Source of the DNA: an uncultured Bacilli bacterium
Lineage (GTDB): Bacteria > Bacillota_I > Bacilli_A > RF39 > UBA660
Assembly: GCA_934162125.1 (NCBI GenBank)
Contig: CAKPHU010000002.1
Coordinates: 195,616 to 259,615 of the forward strand
DNA: 64,000 bases
Direction of reading: 5' to 3'
Made by a program: the position numbers and the translations under genes. A model generated the notes under the pieces. It ran no database searches and had not been told where the DNA came from. It saw only the letters and a program-made list of their open reading frames with translations. Every line of letters starts with the position of its first letter. Position 1 is the stretch's first letter. Below are positions 1,143 through 61,328 of the stretch, piece by piece.

Positions 1143-2018
1143 CTATGCACCTTTTACTTGACTCATTACTTCTTCTGCAAAGTTTTCTTGTCTCTTTTCA
1201 ATACCTTCACCAACAGCAAATCTAGTCATTGCAACAACTTCTCCATTGTTATTTTTAACGTAATCTGCAACTGATAAAGAAGAGTCTTTAATAAATGATT
1301 GTTCTTCTAAGCAAACTTCTTTATAGAATTTATTTAATCTTCCAACAACCATCTTTTCAGCTATATTTTCAGGTTTTCCTTCAGCCATAACTTGTTCTTT
1401 AATAATATGAGATTCTTTTTCTACCATATCAGCTGGTACTCCATCTCTCTTTAAAGCAACTGGATTCATTGCCGCTGCTTGCATAGCTACATCTTTAGCA
1501 ACTTCTTCATTTGCACCTTTTAATGTAACAATAACACCAATTTTTCCACCCATATGTTTATAGCTACCAAATACTTCATCATCATTTTTAGCAATTTTCT
1601 TGAAACGTCTAAAACTGATCTTTTCACCAATCTTAGCAACTAAAGCAACTAGTTTTTCATTAACTGTTTCACTACCATCTTTAATAGCTAAAACATCTTC
1701 AACTGTTTCAACATCATTAGCTAAAATAATATCAGCTAAATAATTAACAAAGTTAACAAACTCTTCGTTTTTAGCAACGAAATCAGTTTCTGAATTAACT
1801 TCTAAGATAACTGCCTTATTACCATCAGTTTTAATTTGACATAATCCTTCAGCAGCAATTCTACTTTCTTTCTTAGCAGCTTTAGCAATACCTTTTTCTC
1901 TTAACCAATCAACTGCTTTTTCCATATTACCTTCAGTAGCTTCTAATGCTTTTTTACAATCAAGCATTCCAGCTCCTGTTTTTTCTCTTAATTCTTTTAC
2001 ATCTTTTGCACTAAACAT
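1143..2018 (-). CDS. tsf: translation elongation factor Ts
   Basis: N-terminal UBA-like MFSAKDVKELREKTGAGMLDCKKALEATEGNMEKAVDWLREKG typical of EF-Ts; 291 aa; directly downstream of rpsB as in most bacteria. Confidence 0.95.
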   Translation of the reverse strand: MFSAKDVKELREKTGAGMLDCKKALEATEGNMEKAVDWLREKGIAKAAKKESRIAAEGLCQIKTDGNKAVILEVNSETDFVAKNEEFVNFVNYLADIILANDVETVEDVLAIKDGSETVNEKLVALVAKIGEKISFRRFKKIAKNDDEVFGSYKHMGGKIGVIVTLKGANEEVAKDVAMQAAAMNPVALKRDGVPADMVEKESHIIKEQVMAEGKPENIAEKMVVGRLNKFYKEVCLEEQSFIKDSSLSVADYVKNNNGEVVAMTRFAVGEGIEKRQENFAEEVMSQVKGA

Positions 2019-2098
2019 TTATAATCCTCCTCGTATTTATATTATAACTCATTTTTCAAACAAAAAGAAGGAGAAATCCCTTCCTCCCTCCAATTATA

Positions 2099-3058
2099 CT
2101 ATTTAGTTAAAGCTTCTATTAAGTCTGCTTTCTTCATAGCAGAATAACCTTTAACTCCAGCTTCTTTAGCTTTTGCTTTTAAATCAGCTAAAGTTAATTC
2201 TTCTAAGTTGTCTAATTCTTTCTTTTCTTCTTCAGCTTCTTTAACTTCTTCTTTAATTTCTTCTTTTACTTCTTCTTTAACTTCAACTTTTTCTTCTTTA
2301 GTTTCTTCTTTTTGAGCTTTCTTTTCAGCTTTTTCAGCTTTAGCTTTATCATCTTCACTAACGAAGTCTAAGATTTCATTACCATTAGCTTCAGCAATAG
2401 CGTTAGTTAATACACCGATTAATAATTTAACTGATCTAACAGCATCATCATTACCAGGAATTACATAATCAACTACATCTGGATCACAGTTAGTATCTAC
2501 GATACCAAATACTGGAATACCTAAAATATGAGCTTCTTTAATAGCAATTTCTTCTTTACGAGGATCAACGATTACTAATGCTTGTGGCATTTTCTTCATT
2601 TCTCTAATTCCTCTTAAGTTTTTATTTAATTTTTCATATTCTTTTTTAATTTGAATAACTTCTTTTTTAGGAAGCATCTCGAAGATACCTTCTTGTTCCA
2701 TCTTTTCGATTTCTTCCATTCTTCTAACTCTTGAACGAATAGTCTTGAAGTTAGTTAAAGTACCACCTAACCATCTTTCATTAACGAAATACATATCAGT
2801 TCTAGTAGCACTTTCTTCAGCAGCTTCTTGAGCTTGTTTCTTAGTACCTACAAATAGAACTTTACCACCATTAGCAGCAATTTCTTTCATAGCATCATAA
2901 GCTTCTTCAAGTTTCTTAACTGTTTTTTGTAAATCGATAATATAAATATCATCTCTTGTAGTATAGATGAATTCCTTCATCTTAGGATTCCATCTTCTCT
3001 TTTGATGTCCAAAATGAACACCAGCTTCTAATAAATAATTCATTGATACAATTGTCAT
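2099..3058 (-). CDS. rpsB: 30S ribosomal protein S2 with ~85-aa K/E-rich C-terminal extension ending in HeH/Rho_N-like motif
   Basis: [20 protein letters not shown]2 signature; 319 aa vs ~240 typical; tail ...[26 protein letters not shown]...[32 protein letters not shown]. Confidence 0.93.
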
Positions 3059-3144
3059 ATATTTTCTCCTTCGTTTTTATCTTCTATTAGTTTCTAAAAC
3101 TTTATCACCATATAGGCACTAGATAAGTAAATTCACTAATATGT

Positions 3145-3768
3145 TTATTTTTCTAAAGCTGCAATAATTTCAGCTTTTTTTAATCCAGCAACATCAACTT
3201 TTTTCTTAGCTGCTATTTCTTTTAATTCTGCTACTGTCATTTTAGCATAATCAACTTTTTCTTCTTTTGCTTCTGCTTTCTTTGTTTCTTTTTTAGCAGG
3301 TGCTTTCTTTTCTTCTTTTACTTCTTTCTTTTCAGCTTTAACTGCTTTTTCTTCACGAGCTGCATTTATAGTAACTTCTTTTAAAGCTACTTCTGTACTC
3401 TTAGAAACTTTTCCAGCTTTACCATCTTTAGCAATTTTAACAAATTCACTAAACATCTTAGGATCATTAATTGCTATTTCTGATAACATTTTACGGTTAA
3501 CTTCAACACCAGCTTTATTTAATCCTTCAATAAATCTTGAATAACTAATGTCATTTTGACGACATGCAGCATTGATTCTTGTAATCCATAATTTTCTGAA
3601 ATCTCTCTTTTTTTGCTTTCTATCTCTGAATGCATATTGTCCTGAATGCATTAATTGTTCTTTTGCTGACTTATATAATCTATGTTTACTACCAAAGTAA
3701 CCTTTAGCTTCTTTTAATACTTTTTTATGACGAGCTTTTGTAACTGCTCCATTTTTAACTCTTGCCAT
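3145..3768 (-). CDS. rplT: 50S ribosomal protein L20 with ~90-aa K/E-rich C-terminal extension ending in HeH/Rho_N-like motif
   Basis: [33 protein letters not shown]...[22 protein letters not shown]20 core (~118 aa) followed by [28 protein letters not shown]...[31 protein letters not shown]. Confidence 0.9.
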
Positions 3769-3795
3769 TGTTCTTCCTCCTTCTGCTTAAACTAA

Positions 3796-3981
3796 TTAAA
3801 TGATATTCTTTAATCTGTTTTGATCAGCCTTACTTAAGTTTGATCCCTTTCTGTTTCTTCTGTTTGCAACTGCTGATTTACTACCAGTATTGTGACGACT
3901 TCCTGGTTTACCAATCTTGCAATCATTTTTACGTTTTGTAACAACCTTAGCTGTTCCTTTATGTGTTTTTATTTTTGGCAT
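3796..3981 (-). CDS. rpmI: 50S ribosomal protein L35
   Basis: MPKIKTHKGTAKVVTKRK... small basic protein between infC and rplT (canonical infC-rpmI-rplT operon). Confidence 0.85.
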   Translation of the reverse strand: MPKIKTHKGTAKVVTKRKNDCKIGKPGSRHNTGSKSAVANRRNRKGSNLSKADQNRLKNII

Positions 3982-3996
3982 AATTAATTCCTCCTA

Positions 3997-4527
3997 CTAT
4001 TTATCTTTTTTTGGTACTAATAACATAGTCATTATTTTTCCGTCTAACTTAGGTTTTTGCTCTATATCCGCATAATCTACTACTCTTTCAGCAAAACGAT
4101 CTAAAACTTCCTTACCTAACTCTGTATGAGCAAGTTGTCTACCCTTGAAACGGATAGTAAGTTTAACTTTATCTCCTTTTTCTAAATACTTAGTAGCGTT
4201 TCTAAGTTTGGTCTCAAAATCTCCCACATCAATAACTGGTGATAAACGAAACTCTTTTAATTCAGCCATGCTAGCTTTTTGTCTCTTTAAAGCTTCCTTT
4301 TCCTTCTTTTGTTTTTCATAACGGAATTTATTATAATCCATTACTTTACAAACTGGTGGATTTGCATTTGGACTTATAAGTACCAAGTCAAGTGCAGCAT
4401 AAGATGCTAAAGTCAAAGCATCTTGTATAGTTTTAACTCCAACTTGTTCTCCATTAGGTCCAATTACCAATACTTCCTTAACTTTGATTTGATCATTTAT
4501 CAACATGTTATTCTTATTGTTTGCGAT
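3997..4527 (-). CDS. infC: translation initiation factor IF-3 (start codon uncertain, probably non-ATG)
   Basis: C-terminal IF3 fold ...LTIRFKGRQLAHTELGKEVLDRFAERVVDYADIE...; N-terminal region NDQIKVKEVLVIGPNGEQVGVK; ORF-track start at 4599 is probably too early. GGAGGTG RBS at 4535-4541 followed 7 nt later by in-frame ATC (4527-4525); IF3 genes commonly use AUU/AUA/AUC starts. Confidence 0.8.
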   Translation of the reverse strand: MANNKNNMLINDQIKVKEVLVIGPNGEQVGVKTIQDALTLASYAALDLVLISPNANPPVCKVMDYNKFRYEKQKKEKEALKRQKASMAELKEFRLSPVIDVGDFETKLRNATKYLEKGDKVKLTIRFKGRQLAHTELGKEVLDRFAERVVDYADIEQKPKLDGKIMTMLLVPKKDK

Positions 4528-4681
4528 ACCTAACACCTCCATATTCGAACAAATGAAAAGCGGATATATATTTATACCCACTTTAAAAACCATAAACAAT
4601 CTACTTTTACTGGCTTTTGACCTATCGCTATTCGCTGATCAGGTGGATATAAATCTCTTTCCTCATTTCTCGACTAGTACA
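4528..4681 (-). promoter_or_regulatory. infC leader region, candidate L20-responsive autoregulatory leader
   Basis: ~150-nt untranslated leader between the strong promoter and infC; in Bacillus this leader binds L20 for autogenous control. Structure not verified here. Confidence 0.3.
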
Positions 4682-4710
4682 ATTATATGCACATTTTCCT
4701 TATTTGTCAA
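4682..4710 (-). promoter_or_regulatory. sigma-A type promoter of infC-rpmI-rplT operon (TTGACA-17-TATAAT)
   Basis: Minus-strand reads TTGACAaataaggaaaatgtgcaTATAAT: perfect -35 and -10 hexamers with 17-nt spacer, ~150 nt upstream of the infC start. Confidence 0.6.
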
Positions 4711-4732: not shown

Positions 4733-5998
4733 TTAACGATGATAAGCACCAATCTTTTTCTGTGAAGCCTCTATATCTTTACTAGACATTACTCCACTAT
4801 ATCTACTTCTATCATTAGAATTAACAGCTAAATCTTGAACAATCTTACTTCTAGTTAAATGATAAGTTGCTTCACCATTATAAGGCAGATAAGGATTAAC
4901 ATAAAATTTCTTTATTGTTCCTTCTCTTTTCTTTATATCAGATTCCCTCTTATCTAATTTTCGAGTTCTCTCTTCTAATTCAGCTCTACCCTTTTCTAAA
5001 GCTTCTTCTCTTCTTTTTAACTCTTCTTCTTTTTCTTTTAACTCTTTTTCTCTTCTTTCAAGAACTTCTTTTCTTGTAAATACTCTAACTCTTTTTCTAA
5101 CAGGAACCTTTTCACTACCTTGAATTCTTATAATTTTCCTGTCCCCATCAAAATGTCTTATATTATCTTCATTAACAGAAAACTTAGCTTTTTTATGAAA
5201 AATATCATAATATAATTTTTTTCCAGAAGGAAGTACTACTTCATTAAAGAAAAAATTACTATCACCCCAGGCCACAATTTTACAATTAATACCCATATAA
5301 TAATTATTTAATAACTTCTTAAATTGTGCTGCTCTATTAAAAGATATACAACCCTTTTTATAATAACCAGTCTCTAAATTACTCTTATTGCACCAATCAA
5401 ATACAAAATCAGCATATTCTTCTATTGTTGATCCGCCTAATTCATCTCTATGTTCCTCATAAAAATGATATACCATTTTTCTTAACTTTACAGCTCTAGC
5501 CATTGATTCTGAATCAAGTTTATCTACTGCCTTCTTAAAATCTCTATCATTAAGATTAAGTAAATAATAATCAAATGAGTTATCACCAAAATACTTTCTA
5601 TCAGAAATTGCATTAGTATTAGAAACTTCTACATTTTCAGGTATTCTATCTAAATCAATAAAACTTTTAGGATTAAATCCATAATTAGAAAAATCTAGTA
5701 TTACTCCTCTTTCAATAGCTTCCATCTTATTTCTATCAAATAACATTTTAATTGAAGATAACGGAGTCTTATCACAAAACTCTATTATAATTTTAAAACC
5801 ATTAGGTATACTCTTTAACATCTTTAAAAACTCTTCATCAATTGAAGATCTTATCATAATCGCAATACTATCATCTCTTACTTCATATAAATTATTACTT
5901 TTATCAATCCATCTATCATAATAATCTTCTTCTGAAGCAGCGCAAAACTGTAAGAATTGATATTTAGTACCGTTACCTAAAATTTTATATAAATCCAT
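4733..5998 (-). CDS. hypothetical protein with C-terminal charged coiled-coil (KELKEKEEELKRREEALEKGRAELEERTRKLDKRE)
   Basis: 421-aa ORF, no recognisable catalytic motif; occupies the position where thrS normally precedes infC. Confidence 0.55.
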   Translation of the reverse strand: MDLYKILGNGTKYQFLQFCAASEEDYYDRWIDKSNNLYEVRDDSIAIMIRSSIDEEFLKMLKSIPNGFKIIIEFCDKTPLSSIKMLFDRNKMEAIERGVILDFSNYGFNPKSFIDLDRIPENVEVSNTNAISDRKYFGDNSFDYYLLNLNDRDFKKAVDKLDSESMARAVKLRKMVYHFYEEHRDELGGSTIEEYADFVFDWCNKSNLETGYYKKGCISFNRAAQFKKLLNNYYMGINCKIVAWGDSNFFFNEVVLPSGKKLYYDIFHKKAKFSVNEDNIRHFDGDRKIIRIQGSEKVPVRKRVRVFTRKEVLERREKELKEKEEELKRREEALEKGRAELEERTRKLDKRESDIKKREGTIKKFYVNPYLPYNGEATYHLTRSKIVQDLAVNSNDRSRYSGVMSSKDIEASQKKIGAYHR

Positions 5999-13766: not shown

Positions 13767-14906
13767 TTATTCTTCATTAACTATCTCTCTAAAATCTGTA
13801 ATATCTTCTTTTACTTTAATAAATACTTCTACTCTTATTTTACTATTTTTTTCCTCTTTTTTCAAAACTTTTTTATCTTGAATAACGATATCCTTACCAT
13901 ACTTAGTATAAACCTTATCAACAGCCTTTTTAAGAGCAAAATCATCTATATTGTTGTAGTTATATTGAAACTCATTAACTACTGTTTCCAAATACTTAGT
14001 ATAACTAATCTTAATAGGCAAAATACTCTTATCCAATATAACAAATTCTTCTCTTTTATATGTTTTAAATTTATTAAACAAAGTAAAATGCTTATCTAAA
14101 AAAATAAACTCTAACTGACTCTTCTCTCTACCAGTTACAATCTCTTCATGATATTTCTTAGGTATTTCTAAATCAACTTTATACCATATTTCTCCATAAA
14201 CATATCCCCTAGCACATCTAGTTGACATCAAATCCTCTTTATTATGAATATTACCACTAATTATAATGTCTCCTTTATGTACATAATCATATTTCTTCGC
14301 AACTACTTCACCCTCTTCTGCTTTTATCTCCAAAATCATTGCATCTTTTAAAGCCACAATATCTCTCTTATTACAAACTTCTGTATCTCTATTCTTCTTT
14401 CTCTCTTCAACTCTAACTACATACTTAGTCCCAATCTCTTCTATCTCAATCCACTCTAAATCATTATTTTCTTTCTTTAATATTTCCTTAATAATAGCTT
14501 CTTTTCTCTTATAATTTACTTTAAAATGATATTTCTCTATCCCATATCTTTTTAAATCATTAGAAACTAACTCTTTAATATAATTATTAGAATGAATAAC
14601 TTCCACAGAAAAAATAATATTACTCAAGAATATATTTAGTAAAACTCCCCCAATAAAACAAATAAAAAATAAATAACTATATCTCAAGTAATGTTTTACT
14701 CTAGCAACACCATAATAGTTAAGTATTTGATATTTATAACTAGTCTTAATCTTTTTTATTTTATTGAGTCCATCATCATCCACCACTAAAATTAATTTAT
14801 TATAACTTTTCTCTAAAGAATAAATCTTAACATTTCTAGTTAATAGTTTCTTAAAAAAATAATCTGGATTCTTTCCTTCGATTACTATTCTATACTTACT
14901 AGTCAT
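13767..14906 (-). CDS. yqfD: sporulation protein YqfD-like
   Basis: 379 aa, single TM after ~90 aa, follows yqfC homolog exactly as in B. subtilis yqfC-yqfD. Confidence 0.65.
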   Translation of the reverse strand: MTSKYRIVIEGKNPDYFFKKLLTRNVKIYSLEKSYNKLILVVDDDGLNKIKKIKTSYKYQILNYYGVARVKHYLRYSYLFFICFIGGVLLNIFLSNIIFSVEVIHSNNYIKELVSNDLKRYGIEKYHFKVNYKRKEAIIKEILKKENNDLEWIEIEEIGTKYVVRVEERKKNRDTEVCNKRDIVALKDAMILEIKAEEGEVVAKKYDYVHKGDIIISGNIHNKEDLMSTRCARGYVYGEIWYKVDLEIPKKYHEEIVTGREKSQLEFIFLDKHFTLFNKFKTYKREEFVILDKSILPIKISYTKYLETVVNEFQYNYNNIDDFALKKAVDKVYTKYGKDIVIQDKKVLKKEEKNSKIRVEVFIKVKEDITDFREIVNEE

Positions 14907-19233: not shown

Positions 19234-22200
19234 TTATTCCATCACATTAGACTTCTTACGATTTTTTCTACACATAAAGATTATAAAAGCTAATAACAAT
19301 GCATCTACGATAGAAGCTATTATAATAATCAAATTATCATTTGCACCTTCAGTATTTGGCACTGTATTTTCAGTCTTGGTAATTATTATATCTGTATTTA
19401 CTATTCCATCACTATATTCTAATTCTAATTTATGAGTACCTATTTCCAATGTATTTAAATAACTAGATTTTAATGTCAAAATAGTACTTCCATTCTTTAA
19501 TTCATAATTTGAAGAGTTAACCTCAATACCATCTAACTTTACTTTTATTAACTTTTCTAGTTCACCATCAGCTTTAATCACAATATCTTTGCTTGAGTCA
19601 ACTTCATAAGTTTGATTATTGCCACTTAAGATTGTGTATTTAACTCCAGCATCTTTCCATATAATTTTTACTACTGTATCATTATTAAAAGCATAAGTAT
19701 CTTCAATCCATCTCTCATTATTAACCATAATATAATCAAATCTCATATCAGTTGGTGGAGTTATTAATAAAGCAATCTTACTTTCTATATCACTTTTCTT
19801 TAATGAAGACCCCTTATCAATCACAATTGTTTCAAAACCATTATTTTTTCCACCATTAGTATCTATTGTTATTTTTACTTGTTCAATAAATTTTGCATAA
19901 ATACTTATATTTTGTTTAATCGTTGTATTAAAGTCAAACTTTGTTTTGAATGTTTCATCTGTATACCAATCATCAAATCTGTAATTATCCTTTGTAGGAT
20001 TAGGGGCTGGTCTTGATATCTTTTCTCCTGAACTCACATAACCAGAATACAATTCTTTTCCTTCAGACATAAATGTAACTTTATATGAAGCTGCTGGTGA
20101 CAATATTTTCCATTCTATCTTTATTGGATTAGTTGTACCATCAGACCATACATAGTTAGTAGTTGAAGATAAAGTACATATTTGAGTATAAGATTTTACT
20201 TTAGTTCCTTTTAAATCCCCACTACCCTTACTTCCTTCTGGACACTGGATACCACTATCTTGTTCACTACCATTATAGATTCTGTCTCCAATTTTTGTTG
20301 GAATTATTAACTTTTTCTTATTTATAGTAAGTTTTACACAACTACTGCTGGCTTGCTTTGTATTTAGAGTTTCATTAGAAATTGCTTTAACATAATAAGT
20401 TCCGGCATTTACTGGTGCTTCACCACTATTTTTAGCACCTGTTTTGGTAGTTGTCTCCACCGTACATTTATCATTAGTATAATATTTGTAAATTAACACT
20501 ACTCCATTTACATTTACACTTGCCTGATTTGCTTCCATTGCACTTCCCGAATATGTCCCGGTTTTAGCAGTCAATGTAATTTTAGGAGTTGCCTGGACTA
20601 TCTTCCATTTAATTTGTTTATTACCAGAAGATCCATCTGACCATACATACCTGCTAGTATCATTTAATTTCAAAGTTACAATATACTCTCCAGCATTTTG
20701 TGCACTTACCGTACTACTAGAACTAACTATACTTACATTAGCTGGTACAGCAATTCCATGATCCTGCATATTACCTGTATAAGTTTTATTTGTTGGATTA
20801 TCTGGTATTTTAACCTTCTCTTTTGGATCAACTAATTTTAGTTTAATCCATTTTGATATACTACTATTTTCGTCAAGTCCACCAAAATAATCTTTAGTTT
20901 GATTGCTTGTATCAGTTGTATCATTATTTTGAAGCATTGCAAATAATTTCAATTCTTTTGCTGTCAAATTAAAATTATTCTTAGGAATTGTAATAACAGC
21001 TTTAATTCCTCTTGCATTAACATCCGTAGCTGTGAAATTTTGTGAGATATTTACTTTTATTAGATTACTATTCTTAATATCAGTCTCTGTACCATTTTTA
21101 ACTAATTTTACTGTTGCTAAACCACTTGGATTAATTCCAACACGCAAATAATCATATGTCGTACCATTGTATTTTAAATTTGCCGCATTAACCTTAATTT
21201 CCACATAATCCTGACCAGCAACACTATTTTGATCTAGCCAATCAATATAAAAATAAATATTATTTAAATCATAATTTGATCTTATTGACATTTGAGCTTG
21301 TGATGCACTACCTATAAACAAAGCATCATCATTAGTATTTGACAAGACTTCATTTTTTATCTCTAATGTATGATTCAAATACAAATTATGTATTCCAATA
21401 TGATCTCTTTTCTTATTAGGATAATATGATGCAGTAAGTAATGCAAAACTATGTGTTGAAGTTGTCGCAATTGAACCAAATTGAGACCATCTTCCTGCTT
21501 CTTTCATCACATTTGGTTCCGACTTATCAAAATTTCCATTTGAATCTCCAATCATTATAGTTGGATAGTCTCCATTAGAATAATATAAAATCGTTTCACC
21601 TGATGGCATTTGAATAATATATGGTGCTGATCCTGACACAAAATTATTTTTTCTAGTAATTGGGCCAGTTTCTGTTAAACCCAAACCAACATTATCGTAT
21701 ACTTTTGCTTCACCATCAAAGTTAGTGTTTGCCTGATGTTGACTATTAATATCCATCCAATACTTCTGTTTACTAACACCATTAACCCTAACATTAGTTG
21801 CATTTGAATACGCTAATGAAATTTTATTCTTTAATGTAACTGATTCTGTATTTTTAACATTACCAGTAGTACATTGTCCAGAACAATTTTCATCACATTT
21901 TGAAGCGGAATCACAAATTGAAGGATTGTCTTTACAATTAGTGCTTATTGTAAAAGATTCAACAGCCATAACCATTTTCTTCTTATTATTAAGTTCTACT
22001 CCAACTGGCATTTGATCAGTCATTTTAATAATTTTATTATTATAACTTATTCCCTTATGACATTGACAATTTGTTTTTAGATTTGTAAAATCAACTATTT
22101 CAGTTGTATTTTGCCAAACAACTGGCTGTTGAATAATTACATATGGTGAATAAGAATTTCTCTCACTAGAATTATATCTTTTATTAGTTCCAACTATATG

Positions 22201-23124
22201 TGGAGTAAAGCTATTAGCATTATCAAGAGAAGATATCATTCCTACTCCTGATGAATTAAAATGGGGACCATTAACAGCTATATAATTTTTATATTTTTCT
22301 GCAAGGCTAACTCCATTTATATACTCAACAGGCGCAATACACGTAAAATATACTTGTATCTCACCAGTTGACAATTGAGCAATTGATGGTTCCCAAACAT
22401 AGCCTGAATAAATTTGTTTTTCAGTAGACCATGTCTTACCGCCATCAGAACTTATTTTCATATATATTCCAATTTTATTAAAAACTTCTGGAGTATAAAC
22501 CCAAACACTTTTTGGTACTTTTGCCACAACATTCATAATTCTGCCATCTCGTAAAACGATTGAATCAGAACTTGAATAATTATATTTTACAGAATTTTCT
22601 GTATATGATTCGTATAATTTCTTTGGTGTTTCCCAATTTTTTAAATCATTACTTCTAGTATAATAAACATTTATTCCATTAGCACTACTTGTATCAATAT
22701 TTTGAAAAGTTAATAAATACTTATACTCACCATTGGCTATATACTTAAGTCTAGGATAATTCATTAATTCTAAATCACTATTATTTTGATCCAAATTACT
22801 TTTATATAGCATTATTGTTTCCCTAAGATTACCTTCAAATGAACTAACAACAGTATTACTACTTACTATATCATCCTTATTCGAATCTAAAGACTTTTGT
22901 GTTTTATTTAAATTAGATATTTTTTCAATAGGCTGTTTCAAGAAAGTATTATTTGCAAAATCACTCATATCTTTATAATCATAATCAATTGAATAACTTG
23001 TCTTTAAGTTTAAAATAACCGCAAAAATAATCACTGCCAACAGCAAAAAAAGATTTCTCTTATTTAATAATTTTTTCATATTTCTCACCAACAACTTATT
23101 AAAGTAATTTGCACATTTTTTCAA
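19234..23124 (-). CDS. large cell-surface protein: BNR/sialidase-like repeats, Ig-like repeats, Listeria-Bacteroides repeat, C-terminal TM anchor
   Basis: 1296 aa; signal peptide (likely from second Met MKKLLNKRNLFLLLAVIIFAVIL); BNR motif SSDGGKTWS; repeated ...YVWSDGS... Ig-like modules; YRFDDWYTDETFKTKFDF repeat; C-terminal hydrophobic anchor + RKNRKK. Confidence 0.75.
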   Translation of the reverse strand: MKKCANYFNKLLVRNMKKLLNKRNLFLLLAVIIFAVILNLKTSYSIDYDYKDMSDFANNTFLKQPIEKISNLNKTQKSLDSNKDDIVSSNTVVSSFEGNLRETIMLYKSNLDQNNSDLELMNYPRLKYIANGEYKYLLTFQNIDTSSANGINVYYTRSNDLKNWETPKKLYESYTENSVKYNYSSSDSIVLRDGRIMNVVAKVPKSVWVYTPEVFNKIGIYMKISSDGGKTWSTEKQIYSGYVWEPSIAQLSTGEIQVYFTCIAPVEYINGVSLAEKYKNYIAVNGPHFNSSGVGMISSLDNANSFTPHIVGTNKRYNSSERNSYSPYVIIQQPVVWQNTTEIVDFTNLKTNCQCHKGISYNNKIIKMTDQMPVGVELNNKKKMVMAVESFTISTNCKDNPSICDSASKCDENCSGQCTTGNVKNTESVTLKNKISLAYSNATNVRVNGVSKQKYWMDINSQHQANTNFDGEAKVYDNVGLGLTETGPITRKNNFVSGSAPYIIQMPSGETILYYSNGDYPTIMIGDSNGNFDKSEPNVMKEAGRWSQFGSIATTSTHSFALLTASYYPNKKRDHIGIHNLYLNHTLEIKNEVLSNTNDDALFIGSASQAQMSIRSNYDLNNIYFYIDWLDQNSVAGQDYVEIKVNAANLKYNGTTYDYLRVGINPSGLATVKLVKNGTETDIKNSNLIKVNISQNFTATDVNARGIKAVITIPKNNFNLTAKELKLFAMLQNNDTTDTSNQTKDYFGGLDENSSISKWIKLKLVDPKEKVKIPDNPTNKTYTGNMQDHGIAVPANVSIVSSSSTVSAQNAGEYIVTLKLNDTSRYVWSDGSSGNKQIKWKIVQATPKITLTAKTGTYSGSAMEANQASVNVNGVVLIYKYYTNDKCTVETTTKTGAKNSGEAPVNAGTYYVKAISNETLNTKQASSSCVKLTINKKKLIIPTKIGDRIYNGSEQDSGIQCPEGSKGSGDLKGTKVKSYTQICTLSSTTNYVWSDGTTNPIKIEWKILSPAASYKVTFMSEGKELYSGYVSSGEKISRPAPNPTKDNYRFDDWYTDETFKTKFDFNTTIKQNISIYAKFIEQVKITIDTNGGKNNGFETIVIDKGSSLKKSDIESKIALLITPPTDMRFDYIMVNNERWIEDTYAFNNDTVVKIIWKDAGVKYTILSGNNQTYEVDSSKDIVIKADGELEKLIKVKLDGIEVNSSNYELKNGSTILTLKSSYLNTLEIGTHKLELEYSDGIVNTDIIITKTENTVPNTEGANDNLIIIIASIVDALLLAFIIFMCRKNRKKSNVME

Positions 23125-25489: not shown

Positions 25490-26434
25490 TCAATATTTAT
25501 TTAAATCACTTCTACTAACATGACCAACTACTTCACCATTAACCTCAAAACTAACCATTTCACTAGGATAATTATCAAAAACTGACAAAGAAATAGTATA
25601 GATAACTTCCTCTACCAACTTATCATTTCCATCCATAATATAATCATTAAAATTAAGTCTCATAATTCCATCATCTTCCTGATAATCTAGAAGAACCGTA
25701 TTACTATTTAAAAAGCTAATTAAATTACTTTCATATAAATAACTAGAAGCTAACTCTTCTACAATAATCTTAATCTTTTCCCGATCATCATTAATATACT
25801 TAGTAACTGGTACATAATACATATCATTATTAATTCTATCCAAATAATATATAACAACCTCATTAATATTATTTCTCGAAGTAATATCATAAACCTTATT
25901 TATTCCAATACTCTTATTTAAAATAGGATCTAACTTTTCCTCTGAAACAGGATACTTATTCAAAACTTCATCTTCTACTAAAATACTAACTCCTTCTACT
26001 TTATCAAGTTCCAAAATACTATAAACAATTGAACTAATCATATTCTTTTCTTTATCCAAATCAACTTTTAAAATATCTTTCGAAAAATTAAGTGTAACTA
26101 TCTCTTTCCCAACAATCACATCTTTTAACTTAGTCCCACTAGGTATTACTCCACTAAGTCCATTTACTTTATTAGAATCTTTTAAACTATTAATAATCTT
26201 ATAAACTCTATCTTTAATATTATCTTCATTCATATAAATCTTACTTCTAACTAATAGATTATTTTTGTTAAGCAAATATATATTATAAATATCTCCCTTA
26301 TTTTCAACTTCTCCATGTGCTGTAACTGCTAAAGTTTCCGTATTACCTACTCCCTTCAAAGAAAAAGCAACTACTAAAATAAATAAAGATAAAGTTGTTA
26401 TAAATATTTTTCTTAAAGCCTTTGTTCTAAGCAT
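25490..26434 (-). CDS. GerM-like (spore germination/sporulation) protein with N-terminal membrane anchor
   Basis: 314 aa; tandem GerMN-like segments (...KVNGLSGVIPSGTKLKDVIVGKEIVTLNFSKD...); adjacent to gerE-like gene. Confidence 0.45.
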   Translation of the reverse strand: MLRTKALRKIFITTLSLFILVVAFSLKGVGNTETLAVTAHGEVENKGDIYNIYLLNKNNLLVRSKIYMNEDNIKDRVYKIINSLKDSNKVNGLSGVIPSGTKLKDVIVGKEIVTLNFSKDILKVDLDKEKNMISSIVYSILELDKVEGVSILVEDEVLNKYPVSEEKLDPILNKSIGINKVYDITSRNNINEVVIYYLDRINNDMYYVPVTKYINDDREKIKIIVEELASSYLYESNLISFLNSNTVLLDYQEDDGIMRLNFNDYIMDGNDKLVEEVIYTISLSVFDNYPSEMVSFEVNGEVVGHVSRSDLNKY

Positions 26435-46297: not shown

Positions 46298-49200
46298 CTA
46301 TTTCCTATAAATAACCACATCATGCTTCTTCTTATCATTTACTAATTTAATTTTACTTACACTCGTACCATCAACTAATATTTTATCAGTTTTATCTTTT
46401 TTAACTTCTATATCATAAGTTGTATCTAAATACTTATAAGTAATATTAAATTTCTTAAATTTATCCAAAACACAAGGTTCAATATTTAAAATACTGCCTT
46501 CTTTTTTAATACCTAATAAATCTCTAATTCCTACATTATAGAACCAACCAGCAGAACCTGTATACCATGTCCAACCACCTCTACCAGCCATATTAGTTGC
46601 TGAATAAATATCGGCTGCAATAACATAAGGTTCTACTTTATATTCTTCTATATTATTCTTAGTAACTGGATTAATCATTTGATAGTAACGATAAGCTTCA
46701 TCATATTTCTTTTCTTTTATTAAAGCCATAATATACCAGCTAACTGCATGAGTATATTGTCCACCATTTTCTCTAATTCCTTTAGAATAATTCATAATAT
46801 AACCAGGATTATTTAAAGACTTACTGAAAGGTGGTGTTAAAAGCTTTACTAAACCATGTTCTTCATCCACTAAGTTATCTGAAACACTATTCAAAACTTC
46901 ATCTTTCTTCTCTTCTGGACAAACTCCACTGATAAGGGCAAAACTTTGTGAAATAAGATCAATCTTACACTCTGTATTGTCATGACTACCAAGTCGATCC
47001 CCATTATCAAAATAAGCTCTTAAATAATATTTGTCATCCCAACCATACTTATTAAGATTATCTTTTAATTTACTATTAAACTTTTCTAATTTACTAATAT
47101 CATAAGAAGAATCAAACTTCTCTATAACTGGTATAAACATCTCAATAATATTGTAAAGGAAGAATCCTAGCCAAACACTCTCGCCCTTACCTTTAATACC
47201 AACTCTGTTCATACCATCATTCCAGTCACCTCCACCCATTAAAGGTAAATGATGACTTCCTAAAGAATTAATACTTAAATTAAGTGCTTTTTCTAAATGT
47301 TTAAACAAACTATCTTTTTCACTAGTATATTCAAAGTTTACAGTCTTTTCATTTTCATAATCTCCAAGAATTGGTGCATTAATATAAGGTACTTCTTCAC
47401 TTAAGATAGCCACATCACCAGTAACTTCAATATACATAATAGTTGCATACACTAGCCATAAATAATCATCTTTATATCTACTTCTAAGTCCAAAATGATT
47501 ATCTTCATGCCACCAGTGTAATACATCTCCCTCTATAAACTGATGACTTGCATTTCTTAATATCTGATCATGTGTCACACTTGGATCTACTAAAACTATA
47601 TTCATGGCATCTTGTAATTGATCACGATAACCATAAGCACCACTTACTTGATAAAAACCTGCTTTCGCAAATAGTCTTGAAGAAATAGTTTGATATAAGT
47701 ACCAACCATTTAAAACATAATCAAGTGCCACATCTGGGGTCTTAACCTTCACAACAGATAATTTCTCTTTCCAAGTTGAAACTACGTCTTTAAACTCTCT
47801 CTTGACACTCTCAACATTACGATATTTTTTAAGAAGCATTTCTAAATAATCATTATCTCTAGAAGCTCCCAACATAAATACCATTTCTTTTTCTTCTAAA
47901 GGTTCAAGTTCAACTTTCGTACTAATACTCTTTGAAAGAATACGATCAACAGATGAATCTGTAAGTTTCATACTAGATGCCATACATACTACAACATCAC
48001 TATAATTGATACTATAAACATTACGTAACTTAACATAATCATCTCTATCTATATATTCTGTCAAAATATGTCTAGCTGTCTTCTCCTCAAAATTACCAAG
48101 AACAGGATTAATATAGTATGAAACATCTAAAGCTATTTTCTTCTTTGTTTTATTTGTAAGTTTAACTAAATATAACTTAACTGTATCTTCTACCGCTACA
48201 AACTCACAAATCTCTTTCTTAACTTCACTAGTTTCAGACTCTAAAATACTATATCCAAAACCATGTCTACACTTATCAGCTACAAAAGTTCTATTATCAA
48301 ATTTAAATCCTTCACTCTGATCATTAACCACAATATCATTAGTCCATGATGTAATCTTAAATTCTCCTGAATTATAAGCAAATGTATAACCACAACCATT
48401 ATTAGTCACAATAGTACCAAAATTCTTATTACTTATTACATTACTCCAAGGAGTTGGTGTATTTCTATTATAAATAAGGTATTCTTCCCCATCTTTAACA
48501 AAACCACCATAACCATTATCAAATACAATTTTTTCTTTAATTTTACTTTCTACATTTCTTTCGTATAAAGCTTCTTCATAATTACTAATTTTATTATGTT
48601 CTTGCAAGTCAGAGATAGCACTTTCCAAAGTCATATGATCTTTAATAATAAATTTAAGTCTAGGAACTACATTAAATAAAATTCTCTCTTCACTAGATAA
48701 ACTATTACCATCAATTACTTTTATCATTCCAGGCGTATGATAGAAATTATTTAATGAATACATTCTATATATTTCATCATCTATTTCTTTATTAATAATC
48801 TTAGCGTATTTATCTTTCTCATCATTAATAATTACTATATCTACAAAGATAGAATTATTTTTATAGTACTCAAAAGTTTTTAAAATACTAAAGACAAATG
48901 GTAAATCACTAATATCACTAATATCAACTAAAATAATTGGTCTGTCTCCACTAACTCCAAATTTCCATAAAGCATTCTGTCCCAACGCATTTTGTCTTAA
49001 AATCTCATTTCTCTCTTCACTAACTGAAATCTTTGTAGTTTGATACAAATAGTTAAGCATAATATTATAAAGTCGCATATCACTACCCGTAATAGAAAGC
49101 ATCTTTGTATTCACAATATTATTAAGTGTCGCTACTTTAAAAGCATTATCTATTTTCTTCTTATCGTTATAGCTTTCAATTATATCATTTATTTGTTCTC

Positions 49201-52200
49201 TACTACGTCCAAATCCCGCAATATAATAAACTGTTGTTGAACTATTTGGTCCAATTAAAATCTTATTTCTAATACTCATTACTGGATCTAAGTTATCACC
49301 CACATAATTAGTTAATTTATTATCTAACATAACTGGGTCATTAACAGTTCTACCTCTACCTACGAAATTATATCTTTCTGTTTCATAAGAATAATCTTCT
49401 AGTGGATCTTCAATTAATAGTCTATTAAACATATAACTATTAACTGCCGCATCCCCTCTACTTCTTCTCTTCATAATTAAAGAATTACTCTTCTTATCAA
49501 ACTCACTAGTAATAAACATACTATTAAATACTCTATGACTAACATCATCCATATTAGGAGAAAGTATTACTTCTGTATAAGTAGTAAGTTCTAAACTCTT
49601 TACTTCATCACTATTATTTCTAAATGTAACCTTTCTAATCTCTCCGTGATGAGAACTCATTACAATAATCTCTGTCTTAGTAGTTATTACTCCATCTTTT
49701 CTAATGTACTTAATATTATCTGAAGCAAAAACAACTTCGTAATTATCGCACTTCTTATTAACAGGTGCATAAGTATTAGACCAAACATAATCAGTATCTA
49801 AATCCTTAATATACATAAACATACCATAGTCTTGTTCTGTTACTTTACGATATCTATTTAATTGAAGAGTTCTATATCTTGAGAAACTATCTCCTCTATC
49901 ATTCATAAGTAAAGCATATTTTCTATTAGATAGAACTGATACTTCTGGCATATAAGAAATATAGTTAAAGTATCTGATATCGTTTTCTATTCCTTCTTTA
50001 GCATAATTATATTTCTTATAATCAGCCATCTTCATATCAATATCTGCTTTTACTTGAACTTTTTCTTTTAATAAAATGTCATAAGTCTTAATATTAACGT
50101 TATGATGGAAATAGTTCTTAATAGCTCCATCTTTTAAATAATTTGTAAGTCCCGCTAATATCATTCCTTGATGATGTGAAAAGAATGCTTCCACAACACC
50201 TTTATTATCATAGTCATAAGCTTCATATAGACCATATTTTCCAGTCATGTCTAGTTCTCTAAACTTTAATATATTCTTATAAACATCCCTTGGAAATAAC
50301 TCCATTACCATAAGTGAAGCATAAGGAGCTAAAACTATTCTATTATCACTAGACTCTTTTGCCTTTAAGTATGGTGTCGCAAAAGCTCTATATTTATAGT
50401 TTAATGAATTATCAAGTTCATTATAAGCTGACTCACTAATTCCCCATGGCAACTTTCTAGAAACCCCTGCCACATAGTCTTTTTGACAGAAATATGAAAA
50501 TTTATAAGACTCATCCAACAATGTATTTGGATAATTCTTCATAAATAAAAGTGGCATATAATATTCAAAAGCTGTTCCAGACCAAGAAATAAGTCCTTTT
50601 CTTCCCTTATAAGTTGTTAAAGACTTATCAAGAGAAAACCAGTGTTTACTAGAAACATCTCCTAAACAAATAGCTAAATAACTAGTAAGTCTAGATTCAC
50701 TCGCAAACTTATTATAGTTATAAATAGAAAGTTTCCCTTCATTATCATCATACCCTATACTAAAGACATGTTTCTTAGTATATAGCTTTCTAAAATTAGT
50801 ATTCTTAATCAATTTATCACATAACTTAACTAGCTTCTCATCACCCAATTTATATAAGAATTCTCTTACTACAATCAAAGAACTAACAAAGTTACCAGAG
50901 TCAACTGTTGAAACAAACCTTGGATTTATTACTTTACCAGTCTTAATAGAATACCAGTTATATAAATGACCATGCCATTTTTCTAATTTAGAAACACTAT
51001 CTAAAACCTTCTCTATAAGTTCAAGTGCTTCATCTTTTTTAATAAACTCTAATTCATAAGCACTAACTATACTTACAAGTGAAAAACCTATCGCTGTTGG
51101 AGAAGTCCTCATATCTAGTTTTTCTTCCCTATTTTCCTGATAATTATCAGGAATTAAATAGAAATATTCTGCACGTAAATTATCTTTAAAGTATAACCAT
51201 GTCTCATAAGCTAATTTCTTAACGTCTTCATCTTCATCTTCTTTTAAATCTACTCTCTCATCTGGAATAGTTAAACTAACATAATATAAGATAAAAGGAG
51301 CTGAAATAAATACTAATGCAATTATAAAAGCAACTACTTCTTTAAAAATAATACCTAAAATAATGAAGACAACACTAACCCCAATATTAAAATAGAAATT
51401 CTTAATGTAAGTAATTAAATCACTTTTCAAAGTCTTTTCTGCATCTTCTGCTGTTACCCAATTAAGTAAATTCTTATGACTAACAGTAAGTCTATAAATA
51501 GTTCTAAAGAAAGCGTCTAAATATAGTTTTGTATAAAATGGAATTGTCGCTAAAGTAATATAACACTTCAAAATAAGACTTCTTCCACCAAAAACTAAGT
51601 TCTTATAATAAACCGTCTTACTATGTGATTCTTCTTTAATTAATTTATTCTTCAAAAAGAAGATAACTGGTATCGCAATCGCTAAAACAACAAATCCAAC
51701 CCACCACCAAGCATTAACTTTTGGACAACAAACTGCTAAAAGTAATACCACCAAAAGTAATGGTTGATAAAATATTCTCACAATATTGTCCAATATTTTA
51801 AACTTACCCAAAATATTAATTGGATTCTTAATTAGATCTCCTTTTTTATTTCTAACTCTATTTCCTAACCAGGAAATAATCTGTGTATCTCCTCTAGCCC
51901 AACGATGATGTCTAGAAGTATCAGTTAAAAACTTTGCAGGGAAATCATCAACTAATTCAATATCTGATACATAACCACAACGTAAATAATTTCCTTCTAA
52001 TAAATCATGTGAAAGTATTAAATTATCTGGAAATACTCCATCTAATATCTGATCAAATACTTTTAAATCATAAATACCCTTACCTACAAAACTTCCTTCT
52101 AAAAAAGTATCTTGATATACATCAGGTATCAAAGCGGAATAAGTATCAAATCCTCCTATACCTGCAAATATTTGACTATATAAACTCTTATTAGTTGCTT

Positions 52201-58470: not shown

Positions 58471-59691
58471 CTATCTTAGCTTTCCTTTTACTCCCTTCAT
58501 ACCTTTTACTCCACCATTAGCAGCAAATCCACTAAGAATATTTGATTCAAATGAATGAGTTTTACTAATTCTCTTCTTATAATCTTTAATTCCTATTGTA
58601 ATCATTTCATCAAGTAAATCAGTAAAATCAATTCCTTTAGCATCCCATAAATAGAAAGCTAAACTTCCAGGAATAGAGTTAATTTCATTAATATATACTT
58701 TTCCTGCCTTATCATCAATTAAGAAATCAATACGACAGTTACCAGATGATCCAAGTACTTTGAAAGCTTTAACTGCAATCTCTTCAACTTCTTTTCTCAT
58801 CTTATCACTAATTTCAGCTGGTAACTTTCTATTAGTAGAAGCCATTCCCTTAGAGAATTTAGTACTAGTTTTAGCTCCCTTTAACTTTCCTTTTCCTCCA
58901 CCAATATATTTATCAGCATAAGTTAAGAATTTATTACCAGATAAAACTTCTTCTATTTCACTAACTTTTTGATGTTCATAATTACCCATTACAGCAATAT
59001 TAACTTCTTTTAAGTTTTGAACAACTTCTTCTACTACAATTTTAGTATCATATTGAATAGCATCATCTATACCTTCAATAAGTTTTTCTTCATTTTCACA
59101 TACACTAATACCAACACTAGATCCTGTTGTAGCAGGTTTAACAATAACTGGATATTTTAACTTACTAACTTTCTTAATAATTTCATCACGATTATTTTTA
59201 TAATCAAAATCATAGAACCATACATACTTAGTCATAGGTATTTCAGCTTCAGCCCAAATATCTTTCATGAAAGCTTTATCTTGTCCTACTACTGAAGCAT
59301 AAACATTTCCCCCTACAAAAGGTATACCAATTGATTGTAAATAACCTTGTAGAACACCATCTTCTACATTAGTACCATGTACTATTGGAAATGCAATATC
59401 AATCTCTTTAACTACAGTCTTTGGAAAACTCTTCTTTTGAAGTACATAAGATCCATTCTTATAATATAAAACTACATTTTTAGCATACTTCTTAATTAAA
59501 GAAAAGTCTTGATATACTTCAATATCCTTTAACATATCTCCAGTATACCATTCTCTATCTTTTGTAATATATATTGGAATTACTTCATATTTTTCTTGAT
59601 TAATCTTATTCATGGCTTGAATAGCAGAAATAATACTTACTTCATGTTCTACTGTTTCTCCCCCAAATATTACACCTACTTTAATTCTCAT
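58471..59691 (-). CDS. ddl: D-alanine--D-alanine ligase (long form with Gly/Lys-rich insertion)
   Basis: MRIKVGVIFGGETVEHEVSIISA N-terminus, ATP-grasp core; 406 aa with insertion ...YIGGGKGKLKGAKTSTKFSKGMASTNRKLPAEIS...; adjacent murF. Confidence 0.85.
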   Translation of the reverse strand: MRIKVGVIFGGETVEHEVSIISAIQAMNKINQEKYEVIPIYITKDREWYTGDMLKDIEVYQDFSLIKKYAKNVVLYYKNGSYVLQKKSFPKTVVKEIDIAFPIVHGTNVEDGVLQGYLQSIGIPFVGGNVYASVVGQDKAFMKDIWAEAEIPMTKYVWFYDFDYKNNRDEIIKKVSKLKYPVIVKPATTGSSVGISVCENEEKLIEGIDDAIQYDTKIVVEEVVQNLKEVNIAVMGNYEHQKVSEIEEVLSGNKFLTYADKYIGGGKGKLKGAKTSTKFSKGMASTNRKLPAEISDKMRKEVEEIAVKAFKVLGSSGNCRIDFLIDDKAGKVYINEINSIPGSLAFYLWDAKGIDFTDLLDEMITIGIKDYKKRISKTHSFESNILSGFAANGGVKGMKGVKGKLR

Positions 59692-59708
59692 ATAATCTAA
59701 AAATCCTC

Positions 59709-61328
59709 CTATTCATTATATGTGTCAGGTAAATCATTTTCAAATAAAGCGTAAACTTCATCTTTTCCATTACACAAACTATTTATAAAAGCATATGCTT
59801 CTCTAACATCATTATACACCACAATATTATCTTTGTTAAATCCTGTTGAAATTATTCCTTCATAAATTGGTTTAGTCCTCTTCTCTCCAATTAAAACAGC
59901 ATAATCACAAGACTCAGCAATTTCTTCTCCAAACTTCTTATTGTATTCTGCTTCCTTATCCCCAAGTTCAATCATGCCTGGTGTTACTACAACTTTAATA
60001 CCATCCATCATTTTTAGAACTTGACAAGCATTAGCAGCCCCAACAGGATTAGAATTATAAGCATCATCAATCTGATAAAAAGCTCCTAATCTTTTTACCT
60101 CTAAACGATGTTCAACTGGCTTAACCATCTTAACTGCATTAATCAAGTCTTCTATCTCAATACCAAATTCTCTTCCGCAAGCAATACCTGCTAAAATATT
60201 ATAAACATTATGATTACCTAATAACTTAGTAGTAAAATGATATTTCTTATTATCACCTACAAAACTAACATCAAAACTAGTTCCAGTTCCAGAACATTTA
60301 ATATTGCTAGCTCTAACTGAAACATCAGGATTATTAATACCAATCCAAATAGTCTTAACTTTATTCTTTAATTTATAATTAACTTGTTTTGGATCATCGC
60401 CATTTAAAACAGCAAATCCATCACTAGGAAGTGACTCTATAAGTTCAAATTTACCATCTATAATATTTTGTTCACTACCAAATGACTCTAAATGAGCAGT
60501 ACCTATTGTAGTTAAAATACCATACTTAGGTTTAACTAAATTACAAAGTCCCTTAATTTCCCCTTTAACATAAGCACCCATCTCTGCAATAAAAATATCA
60601 GTAAACTTATCCATATAATTATTAACAGTCATAATAAGTCCATTATAAGTATTTAAATTTCTAGGAGTTGGTAAAGTATTATATTTAACACTTAAAATAT
60701 CACTTAAAATATTCTTAGAACTAGTCTTACCATAACTACCAGTAATACCAATTATTTTTAAATTAGTCATAGATTTAAGCTTCTTTTGCGCTTTTCTTTT
60801 AAAATGAATATATACACACTTCTCAATTGGAAAGTTAATAATATTAGCAATAAATACCACATAACAGTTTAAAAATAACATCAAACTACTTATAAACAGA
60901 CACATCCATACACATTGTAAATTATCAACATGTCCATTATATATAGTTAAACCAAGAGGTATCAAATATAAAATACCAATTGTAAAGATTAATCTCTTAA
61001 CTCTTGCTGTAACAACTAAAGGCTTCTTATTCTGATCATTAACAATTTTCTGTTTCCATTTATAACCCATTATAATATTTAATATAATGATCGCAACATT
61101 TGCCATAAATGTAAATTTATTTAAATCAAATATAATTAAATAACCAATTAAACTAATAGCAACTACTATTATATCCATATCTAAGAATTGTTCATAGTTC
61201 TTCCAAACCCATTTTAAATAACGATTATTTTCATTATATAAGTTTTGTTGTAACATATGTAAATATCTCTTAGTCTTATAAAATAATACATATATAAAAC
61301 TAAATACAACAATATAATATAAAACCAT
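59709..61328 (-). CDS. murF: MurF-like Mur ligase fused to an N-terminal polytopic membrane domain
   Basis: Mur ligase central domain GITGSYGKTSSKN and C-terminal domain; ddl-murF pairing; first ~190 aa are 5-6 predicted TM helices instead of the usual soluble MurF N-domain. Confidence 0.7.
   Translation of the reverse strand: MVLYYIVVFSFIYVLFYKTKRYLHMLQQNLYNENNRYLKWVWKNYEQFLDMDIIVVAISLIGYLIIFDLNKFTFMANVAIIILNIIMGYKWKQKIVNDQNKKPLVVTARVKRLIFTIGILYLIPLGLTIYNGHVDNLQCVWMCLFISSLMLFLNCYVVFIANIINFPIEKCVYIHFKRKAQKKLKSMTNLKIIGITGSYGKTSSKNILSDILSVKYNTLPTPRNLNTYNGLIMTVNNYMDKFTDIFIAEMGAYVKGEIKGLCNLVKPKYGILTTIGTAHLESFGSEQNIIDGKFELIESLPSDGFAVLNGDDPKQVNYKLKNKVKTIWIGINNPDVSVRASNIKCSGTGTSFDVSFVGDNKKYHFTTKLLGNHNVYNILAGIACGREFGIEIEDLINAVKMVKPVEHRLEVKRLGAFYQIDDAYNSNPVGAANACQVLKMMDGIKVVVTPGMIELGDKEAEYNKKFGEEIAESCDYAVLIGEKRTKPIYEGIISTGFNKDNIVVYNDVREAYAFINSLCNGKDEVYALFENDLPDTYNE

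Follow-up and report, generated by a model that had tools for sequence, protein, structure and literature searches.

Ribosomal proteins uS2 and bL20 of an uncultured gut Bacilli lineage end in tethered modules of the SAP/Rho_N type

Three-part architecture of uS2 and bL20

We analyzed a 64,000-nucleotide (nt) stretch of DNA from an uncultured Bacilli bacterium (contig CAKPHU010000002.1; hereafter the window), in which two neighboring ribosomal protein genes, rpsB and rplT, encode products with long C-terminal tails. All coordinates refer to the window, and all features described here lie on its minus strand. rpsB (2099..3058, stop codon at 2099-2101) encodes a 319-residue ribosomal protein uS2 (S2), which matched Pfam Ribosomal_S2 at 333 bits. 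rplT (3145..3768, stop codon at 3145-3147) encodes a 207-residue bL20 (L20), which matched Ribosomal_L20 at 160 bits. A check of both open reading frames (ORFs) returned the same lengths and the same tail residues that a first-pass annotation of this DNA had given. Both proteins are canonical equivalogs, uS2 scoring 346 bits against TIGR01011 (cut-off 76.3) and bL20 scoring 165.4 bits against TIGR01032 (cut-off 65.65). Each consists of three parts: a canonical core, a low-complexity charged linker, and a C-terminal helix-extended-helix (HeH) domain of approximately 35 residues from the SAP/Rho_N/LEM clan.

In uS2, the conserved core spans approximately residues 1-225 (2384..3058; Pfam residues 9-223) and varied hardly at all among 32 homologues. 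It is followed by an E/K-rich linker (approximately residues 226-281; 2216..2383) and by the terminal module (residues 282-319; 2102..2215), which was assigned with Pfam and AlphaFold to a long-loop, Rho_N-like subtype. In bL20, the core covers approximately residues 1-118 (3415..3768; Pfam residues 3-108, TIGR01032 residues 1-114) and the K/E/A/T-rich linker approximately residues 119-170 (3259..3414). Its module occupies residues 171-207 (3148..3258) and was assigned with Pfam to a short-loop, SAP-like subtype. The linkers, which were delimited by composition and charge, are of opposite sign. That of S2 is acidic, with a net charge of -10 in the window (57-residue slice) and a mean of -5 across relatives, and that of L20 is mildly basic (+4 in the window, 55-residue slice; mean of +3 across relatives).

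Pfam groups SAP, Rho_N, and HeH/LEM in a single clan. With gathering thresholds of 24.9 bits for Rho_N (PF07498) and 23.9 bits for SAP (PF02037), the S2 module was identified as Rho_N at residues 285-319 (39.0 bits and E 8e-10 in the whole protein; 45.5 bits on the isolated tail). The same tail scored 20.6 bits for SAP, below the cut-off. The L20 module was identified as SAP at residues 173-206, above the cut-off both in the whole protein (27.6 bits) and on the isolated tail (32.2 bits). Against Rho_N, L20 reached 20.6 bits as a whole protein, below the threshold, and 24.9 bits as an isolated tail, at the threshold; Pfam Rho_N and HeH were both weaker than SAP on this protein. The first-pass annotation had proposed that the tails are of the Rho N-terminal/SAP-like type and had suggested a profile search as the check. 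That search was significant for each tail, S2 to Rho_N and L20 to SAP, and these scores above curated cut-offs, together with the predicted fold, confirmed the assignment.

The nearest solved relatives by sequence were the Ku70 SAP domain and the Rho proteins 7oqh, 8hsj, and 3l0o for the S2 tail, and the Tho1 SAP domain (4uzw/1h1j) for the L20 tail. The S2 module also matched positions 4-40 of the Rho model TIGR00767. Identity of S2 with transcription termination factor Rho was rejected, as the match amounted to 17 bits vs cut-offs of 315-509, was confined to those positions, and was accompanied by no other Rho domains. L20 was aligned end to end (residues 1-207; model positions 1-225 of 232) by NF011109, with a score of 173.2 bits that falls under the cut-off of 187. 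As both tails hit positions 189-225 of this model, its 'unknown domain' corresponds to the HeH module. The NCBIfam 'sunset domain variants' were also rejected. For S2, NF051451 gave 296.9 bits vs 710, with an alignment ending at model position 275 of 382, and for L20, NF051450 gave 138.4 bits vs 375, with an alignment ending at position 164 of 219.

AlphaFold predicted the isolated S2 module (38 residues, alignment A1) with a predicted local distance difference test score (pLDDT) of 89.9, as two helices (9-19 and 29-37) joined by an extended loop. The top fold matches in the PDB were structures of the N-terminal helical subdomain of E. coli Rho (9ff7, 1a8v, 1pv4, and 6xav), with TMq values of 0.80-0.84 and root-mean-square deviations (rmsd) of 1.0-1.4 Å. 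These were followed by the SAP domains of FAN1, Hcc-1, Ku70, and Tho1 (TMq 0.75-0.80 for FAN1, Hcc-1, and Tho1), the matches overall spanning 0.7-0.84. Because the query comprised only 38 residues, Foldseek E-values were not significant, and TM-score, rmsd, and Pfam were used instead. As modeled, the S2 module is an HeH fold by its two helices, its extended loop, and its superposition on solved HeH domains. Full-length S2 was predicted poorly (pLDDT 56), with values of 35-52 in the linker and approximately 79 in the module. These values agree with an autonomous end domain on a flexible tether and do not discriminate between a helical and a non-helical linker.

The two modules of the window share 13 of 32 residues when aligned by eye, 35% identity in alignment A1, and 15 of 30 residues in the best local alignment. 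BLASTP of the S2 tail against the L20 tail gave no alignment. Their Smith-Waterman score was 50, compared with 26.3 ± 5.2 for composition-preserving shuffles, of which 3 in 5000 reached this value. By these alignment statistics, the similarity is real, at the level of a family. The first-pass annotation had described the approximately 32-residue modules as almost identical, a wording that an identity of about 35-50% does not sustain. The subtypes differ by loop length, S2 having a long 'KGYSAMKK' loop and L20 a short 'VAGLKK' loop. In an alignment of seven modules, the invariant positions were T, A, L, K, A, KKA, AL, and a final K. Those at T, A, L, K, and KKA agree with the SAP consensus, in which the KK pair would start helix 2. 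A third copy of the module was sought with search profiles built first from the two window tails and later from 136 related tails; none was found in the six-frame translation of the window or in the flanks of 84 related loci. These 84 loci represent 81 distinct genomes (L001-L004 being one genome) and are the set of relatives used below.

Conservation and exchange of the modules

The 319-residue S2 was found in identical form (P0121, 100%) on 50 contigs, and the 207-residue L20 at 97% identity (P0009) on 98 contigs. A frameshift, a stop read-through, or a mis-assembly could in principle create such apparent extensions, and some module-carrying metagenomic 'proteins' are clearly fragments or chimeras (e.g. 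P0318). Recurrence of this kind, with ORFs intact in 81 distinct related genomes and a module pLDDT of 90, refutes this explanation, and the earlier view that the extensions are not artefacts stands. In the search for L20 homologues, the L20 domain was present in 120 of the 120 matches listed, 116 of which also contained SAP or Rho_N. Two homologues, P0001 (293 residues) and P0073 (239 residues), have an internally duplicated L20 core and are probably mis-assemblies. Scanning one genome per species, we recovered relatives at 499 or more loci, of which the best 80 were all from uncultured gut Bacilli, filed under labels such as Bacilli bacterium, Mycoplasma sp. CAG:776, uncultured Erysipelotrichaceae, Tenericutes, and Clostridia; several of these records are labelled Muribaculaceae and are probably mislabelled.

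L20 was extended in 84 of 84 related loci, mostly to 172-208 residues, and ended in the module in 75 of them. The remainder comprised eight tails without a module and one protein truncated at 142 residues. rpsB lay directly downstream of rplT in 62 of the 84 loci, and all 61 complete S2 proteins (303-361 residues) ended in the module. Seven of the module-less L20 proteins (L040, L041, L059, L061, L062, L063, and L079) mostly bore a K/T-rich terminal motif, ..KKTTTKKTTKKE(E/D/T)K, and the eighth (L075) had a different ending. None of these module-less tails matched the NCBIfam 'sunset' model. Where S2 was recovered beside a module-less L20 gene, it retained its module.

Comparison of orthologues revealed different degrees of constraint along the proteins. 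Identity was 85% for S2 and 90% for L20 in the cores, and 59% and 64%, respectively, in the modules. The linkers were unalignable, with lengths of 43-100 residues in S2 and 20-56 residues in L20 (the latter from 72 related genomes). The S2 linker of the window is encoded in part by 12-nt tandem repeats (2236-2311), and close strains carry S2 variants of 312-324 residues through small in-frame linker insertions or deletions, mostly of 3-8 residues. Constraint acts on the modules, and the linkers are free to drift in both length and sequence.

Within- and between-genome comparisons of the modules were made with 51 non-redundant genomes having both. The mean identity between L20 and S2 modules was 0.648 in the same genome and 0.537 in different genomes, and the observed value was not attained in any of 10,000 permutations (p < 1e-4). 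Three subtype states were seen in this set: short L20 with long S2 (as in the window), both short, and both long. The combination of long L20 with short S2 was found in none of the 51 genomes. Agreement extended to codon usage, with a fraction of identical codons of 0.767 within genomes vs a between-genome baseline of 0.673. This fraction was 0.94 in L058, where the module DNA was 97% identical and 34 of 36 codons were the same. The module DNA of L007 was 92% identical, and in L051 and L043 the codons at identical residues agreed to 93-94%. At the 3' ends of both genes, L058 has direct repeats of 158 nt and L007 of 144 nt, approximately 1.04 kb apart.

Since the near-identity within genomes includes synonymous sites and coincides with direct repeats, it points to gene conversion or cassette replacement between the neighboring genes. 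These sequence patterns indicate that the modules have been homogenized by gene conversion in several related genomes. The window pair itself bears no sign of recent conversion, its modules being of different subtypes and 56% identical in DNA. The first-pass annotation had taken the two proteins to carry their modules independently. Given that the genes are adjacent and that the modules reach 97% DNA identity in related genomes, such independence is doubtful. The 3 kb downstream of rplT contained no rpsB in the more distant relatives L064-L084. There, all L20 proteins but those of L068 (cut by the contig end) and L079 have the long-loop module, which suggests that the long-loop form is probably ancestral on L20.

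To place the module beyond this lineage, a profile of seven tails was searched against 1.84 billion representative proteins. It returned 3943 proteins at E <= 0.001 and 213 at E <= 1e-10. Among the best 150 matches, Pfam Rho_N was present in 143 and SAP in 136, and the hosts included Ribosomal_S2 (3), Ribosomal_L20 (2), Ribosomal_L21p (2), Rho (1), and many multi-copy proteins. Modules joined to IF2_N, ParB-N, TopA-N, EF-Ts-N, or an ECF sigma factor were not accepted, many of these being fragments (P0276, P0298, P0318, P0322, P0375; L085). The IF2_N join (P0318), for example, lay on a 595-bp contig with a coverage of 1.1. Such metagenomic joins probably arose as chimeras during assembly, with the repeated module as the seed, and a third genuine host may exist.

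Fusions of bL21 with Rho_N are a separate case. In a bL21 search, 120 of the 120 matches listed contained the L21 domain, and 119 also contained Rho_N. These fusions (P0395-P0509, approximately 157-172 residues) are widespread in cultured Flavobacteriaceae (among them Leeuwenhoekiella, Mesonia, Salegentibacter, Christiangramia, Zunongwangia, and Psychroflexus), where they are annotated merely as '50S ribosomal protein L21'. The solved F. johnsoniae bL21 (7jil_R, 147 residues) aligns only up to residue 126. An HeH module appended to a bacterial ribosomal protein is a kind of fusion already visible in databases, and no paper on these ribosomal-protein fusions was found in the literature searched. 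The proposal of a lineage-specific ribosome feature therefore holds in part: the arrangement is conserved in one uncultured gut Bacilli lineage, but its kind also occurs elsewhere, in the Flavobacteriaceae bL21 fusions and in the NCBIfam L20 fusion model.

Operon context and surroundings

The genes infC, rpmI, rplT, rpsB, and tsf form an unbroken run. The placement of rpsB-tsf directly downstream of infC-rpmI-rplT (1143-4710) is an unusual gene order. The 86-nt spacer between rplT and rpsB (3059..3144) had no terminator-like site on scan, so that rpsB is probably co-transcribed with rplT. A site scan placed a terminator-like hairpin (2066..2091) between rpsB and tsf (EF-Ts; 1143..2018), an ORF whose orthologue in relatives has Pfam EF_TS. 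rpmI (3796..3981) encodes a 61-residue bL35 with no extension, and L35p occupies the same position in L001-L004.

Upstream of infC lies an RNA resembling the L20 leader (4546..4665), which matched RF00558 over the full model length (37 bits, E 1.8e-4; short of the gathering score, 58.7). The site scan also identified a promoter-like site with a 12/12 consensus match (4710-4682) and an attenuator-like hairpin (4584-4557). No S2 leader RNA was found in the Rfam scan. The leader-like RNA overlaps the 5' part of the listed infC ORF (3997-4599; 200 residues, TTG start). This overlap, and the length of 169 residues that IF3 has in relatives, indicate that infC probably starts downstream of the listed position, perhaps at a non-canonical codon.

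Several other features of the window were recorded. Between the infC promoter region and the next gene is a 421-residue ORF (4733-5998) with no Pfam match, part of which is an E/K/R-rich coiled stretch (..EKELKEKEEELKRREEALEKGRAELEERTRKLDKRESDIKKREG..). Surface proteins are probably encoded by two very large ORFs, of 2545 residues (46298-53935) and 1296 residues (19234-23124), the latter having a Listeria-Bacteroides repeat domain. ORFs of at least 90 residues are nearly all on the minus strand across the window (1-64000), GC skew is strongly negative throughout (-0.2 to -0.5), and G+C content is 24-34%. This extreme strand bias is consistent with a single replichore. Genes for sporulation (YqfD, Germane) and peptidoglycan synthesis (Ddl, Mur ligase) occur at 13767-14906, 25490-26434, and 58471-61328, from which we take the organism to be a walled spore-former and not a mollicute. 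Several records of related genomes are labelled 'Mycoplasma sp.' or 'Tenericutes' although the window holds these genes.

Possible roles and known systems

Candidate functions put forward in the first-pass annotation were mRNA/rRNA tethering and ribosome hibernation. SAP domains of Ku70, FAN1, PIAS, and Tho1 bind DNA or RNA, and low-specificity binding of nucleic acids is typical of HeH modules. On the 50S subunit, bL20 has its globular domain on the solvent side, next to bL21. uS2 is on the 30S subunit's back, at the head-body hinge, where it forms the docking site of bS1 (PMC10931766). The C-termini of both proteins would lie on solvent-exposed faces of the ribosome, from which the tails would project into the cytoplasm. 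With both C-termini exposed in this way, the modules would be displayed on flexible tethers from both subunits. There, they would act as low-specificity nucleic-acid-binding 'hands' that concentrate RNA (mRNA or nascent rRNA) or AT-rich DNA locally at the ribosome surface. The S2 module would resemble a bS1-like capture arm, and its acidic linker would stop the module from collapsing onto rRNA. By analogy with these known domains, we tentatively favor tethered nucleic-acid-binding modules on both subunits, with that of S2 as an analogue of the bS1 arm, and assign a probability of roughly 0.45 to this statement as a whole. Our confidence in its structural part is much higher.

Several points weigh against nucleic-acid-binding tethers. 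The modules are weakly basic, with a mean net charge of +0.9 in S2 and +2.1 in L20, and the S2 tail as a whole is strongly acidic. The primary RNA contacts of Rho are in its OB fold, not in its N-terminal helices. Eight related genomes have lost the L20 module and kept that of S2, which suggests that the L20 copy is dispensable. The poor full-length AlphaFold model gives nothing reliable on the S2 linker, and PDB searches found the module on none of the solved ribosome chains.

The modules might instead be protein-docking handles, either for a shared partner (RNA polymerase, NusA/NusG, or a hibernation or assembly factor) or for each other, thereby coupling ribosomes to transcription or clustering or dimerizing them. 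The tendency of the two modules of one genome to be of the same subtype would be expected if they fit one partner or each other. In addition, the Rho N-terminal domain contacts RNA polymerase and Nus factors in pre-termination complexes (6xav and 6xas were among the fold matches), and uS2 is at the 30S-30S interface of Firmicute 100S dimers. However, the within-genome likeness reaches synonymous codons, which argues for gene conversion rather than selection for matching surfaces. The window modules are of different subtypes and approximately 35% identical, no candidate partner is named, and the bL20 site is far from the uS2 site, leaving docking an unlikely explanation. A different possibility is that the tails are near-neutral accretions, in which slippage-prone K/E sequence and a mobile HeH cassette accumulated on exposed C-termini and serve at most as solubility or 'entropic bristle' elements. 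The genome has a G+C content of 29%, the linkers are tandem-repeat encoded and highly variable in length, L20 in eight related genomes kept its K/T/A/E tail alone after losing the module, and the module is promiscuous, its 3943 representative proteins showing many architectures. Nevertheless, it sits at the extreme C-terminus of all complete adjacent S2 proteins and of 75 of 84 L20 proteins, the latter being just 53-81% identical to the query. Its key positions are invariant beside a linker that is free to vary, and the same module became fixed on bL21 independently, in an unrelated phylum. We regard neutral accretion as quite unlikely on these grounds.

The modules could also serve extra-ribosomal or assembly roles, by binding their own mRNA leaders (autoregulation of the infC-rpmI-rplT-rpsB-tsf operon) or nascent rRNA. 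bL20 and uS2 are both autogenous repressors (PMC10931766), and the Rho-N motif of RHON1 binds rRNA fragments and supports rRNA processing (PMC3458557). The L20-leader-like RNA that precedes infC and the lack of a terminator between rplT and rpsB would suit such a scheme, but the leader match falls below the Rfam gathering score (37 vs 58.7 bits) and no S2 leader was found in the same scan. Furthermore, canonical bL20 and uS2 autoregulate without any such module, and in L064-L084, where no rpsB lies within 3 kb downstream, the L20 module was kept in all but L068 and L079. We rate this as the least probable of the biological accounts considered here.

When bacterial ribosomal proteins carry lineage-specific extensions, these are usually short peptides packed onto rRNA. 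Here, by contrast, a complete, independently folding domain of a nucleic-acid-binding type is predicted to be tethered to each subunit, by approximately 50 residues in this genome and 20-100 in relatives. This arrangement is conserved over dozens of species of abundant uncultured gut Bacilli, with a parallel on bL21 in an unrelated phylum. If the modules bind RNA or DNA, they would either stand in for bS1-type mRNA capture as a built-in device or link ribosome and nucleoid physically. A more far-reaching version, in which the modules on uS2 (30S) and bL20 (50S) form a dedicated tether that keeps ribosomes, as they translate, on nascent transcripts or the AT-rich chromosome, is speculative and unlikely in our estimation. 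If true, it would enforce transcription-translation coupling or ribosome localization in this lineage. Recurrent gene conversion would then be retained because both modules must recognize the same ligand, and the Flavobacteriaceae would have converged on the same 50S patch with their bL21 fusion. For two different essential ribosomal protein genes to undergo gene conversion at their 3' ends is itself unusual evolutionary behavior. New here are the presence of the module on both subunits in one lineage, the opposite linker charges of S2 and L20, and the exchange of module cassettes by gene conversion between two essential ribosomal protein genes.

Known systems resemble these proteins in part. 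The analogy to bS1 is functional only, in that the S2 module, like bS1, would be a flexibly tethered RNA binder at the uS2 site. Unlike the HeH modules, bS1 is a separate protein with OB-fold S1 domains, and the two have no sequence or fold relationship. Closer in architecture is the NCBIfam model NF011109/PRK14537, a '50S ribosomal protein L20/unknown domain fusion protein', which the window L20 matches in design with a near-miss score; the model assigns no identity or function to its extra domain. The Flavobacteriaceae bL21 fusion, on the 50S neighbor of bL20, follows the same plan of a ribosomal core, a K/A/E linker, and a C-terminal Rho_N. It belongs to another phylum and another host protein, and no second module on uS2 came up there.

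With the Rho N-terminal subdomain (PF07498), the S2 module has the HeH fold and the sequence pattern in common. Unlike in Rho, the S2 and L20 modules are C-terminal and isolated on a long linker, with neither the OB-fold RNA-binding domain nor the ATPase, and their likeness to Rho implies nothing about a Rho-like termination activity. The L20 module resembles the eukaryotic SAP domains (PF02037; Tho1, Ku70, FAN1, and Hcc-1), and, as in Ku70, it is terminal on a flexible linker. Its host, unlike those of the eukaryotic domains, is a bacterial ribosomal protein, and nucleic-acid binding is proposed here by analogy. The S2 tail is most readily compared with Arabidopsis RHON1, which likewise joins an acidic low-complexity stretch to a C-terminal Rho-N module of approximately 40 residues (PMC3458557). 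RHON1 differs from S2 in being a plant-specific partner of RNase E, and the comparison extends to the module only. In gel shifts, the 40-residue C-terminal Rho-N motif of RHON1 alone bound single-stranded RNAs, including rRNA fragments; these derived from both 16S and 23S rRNA, whose processing the protein supports (PMC3458557).

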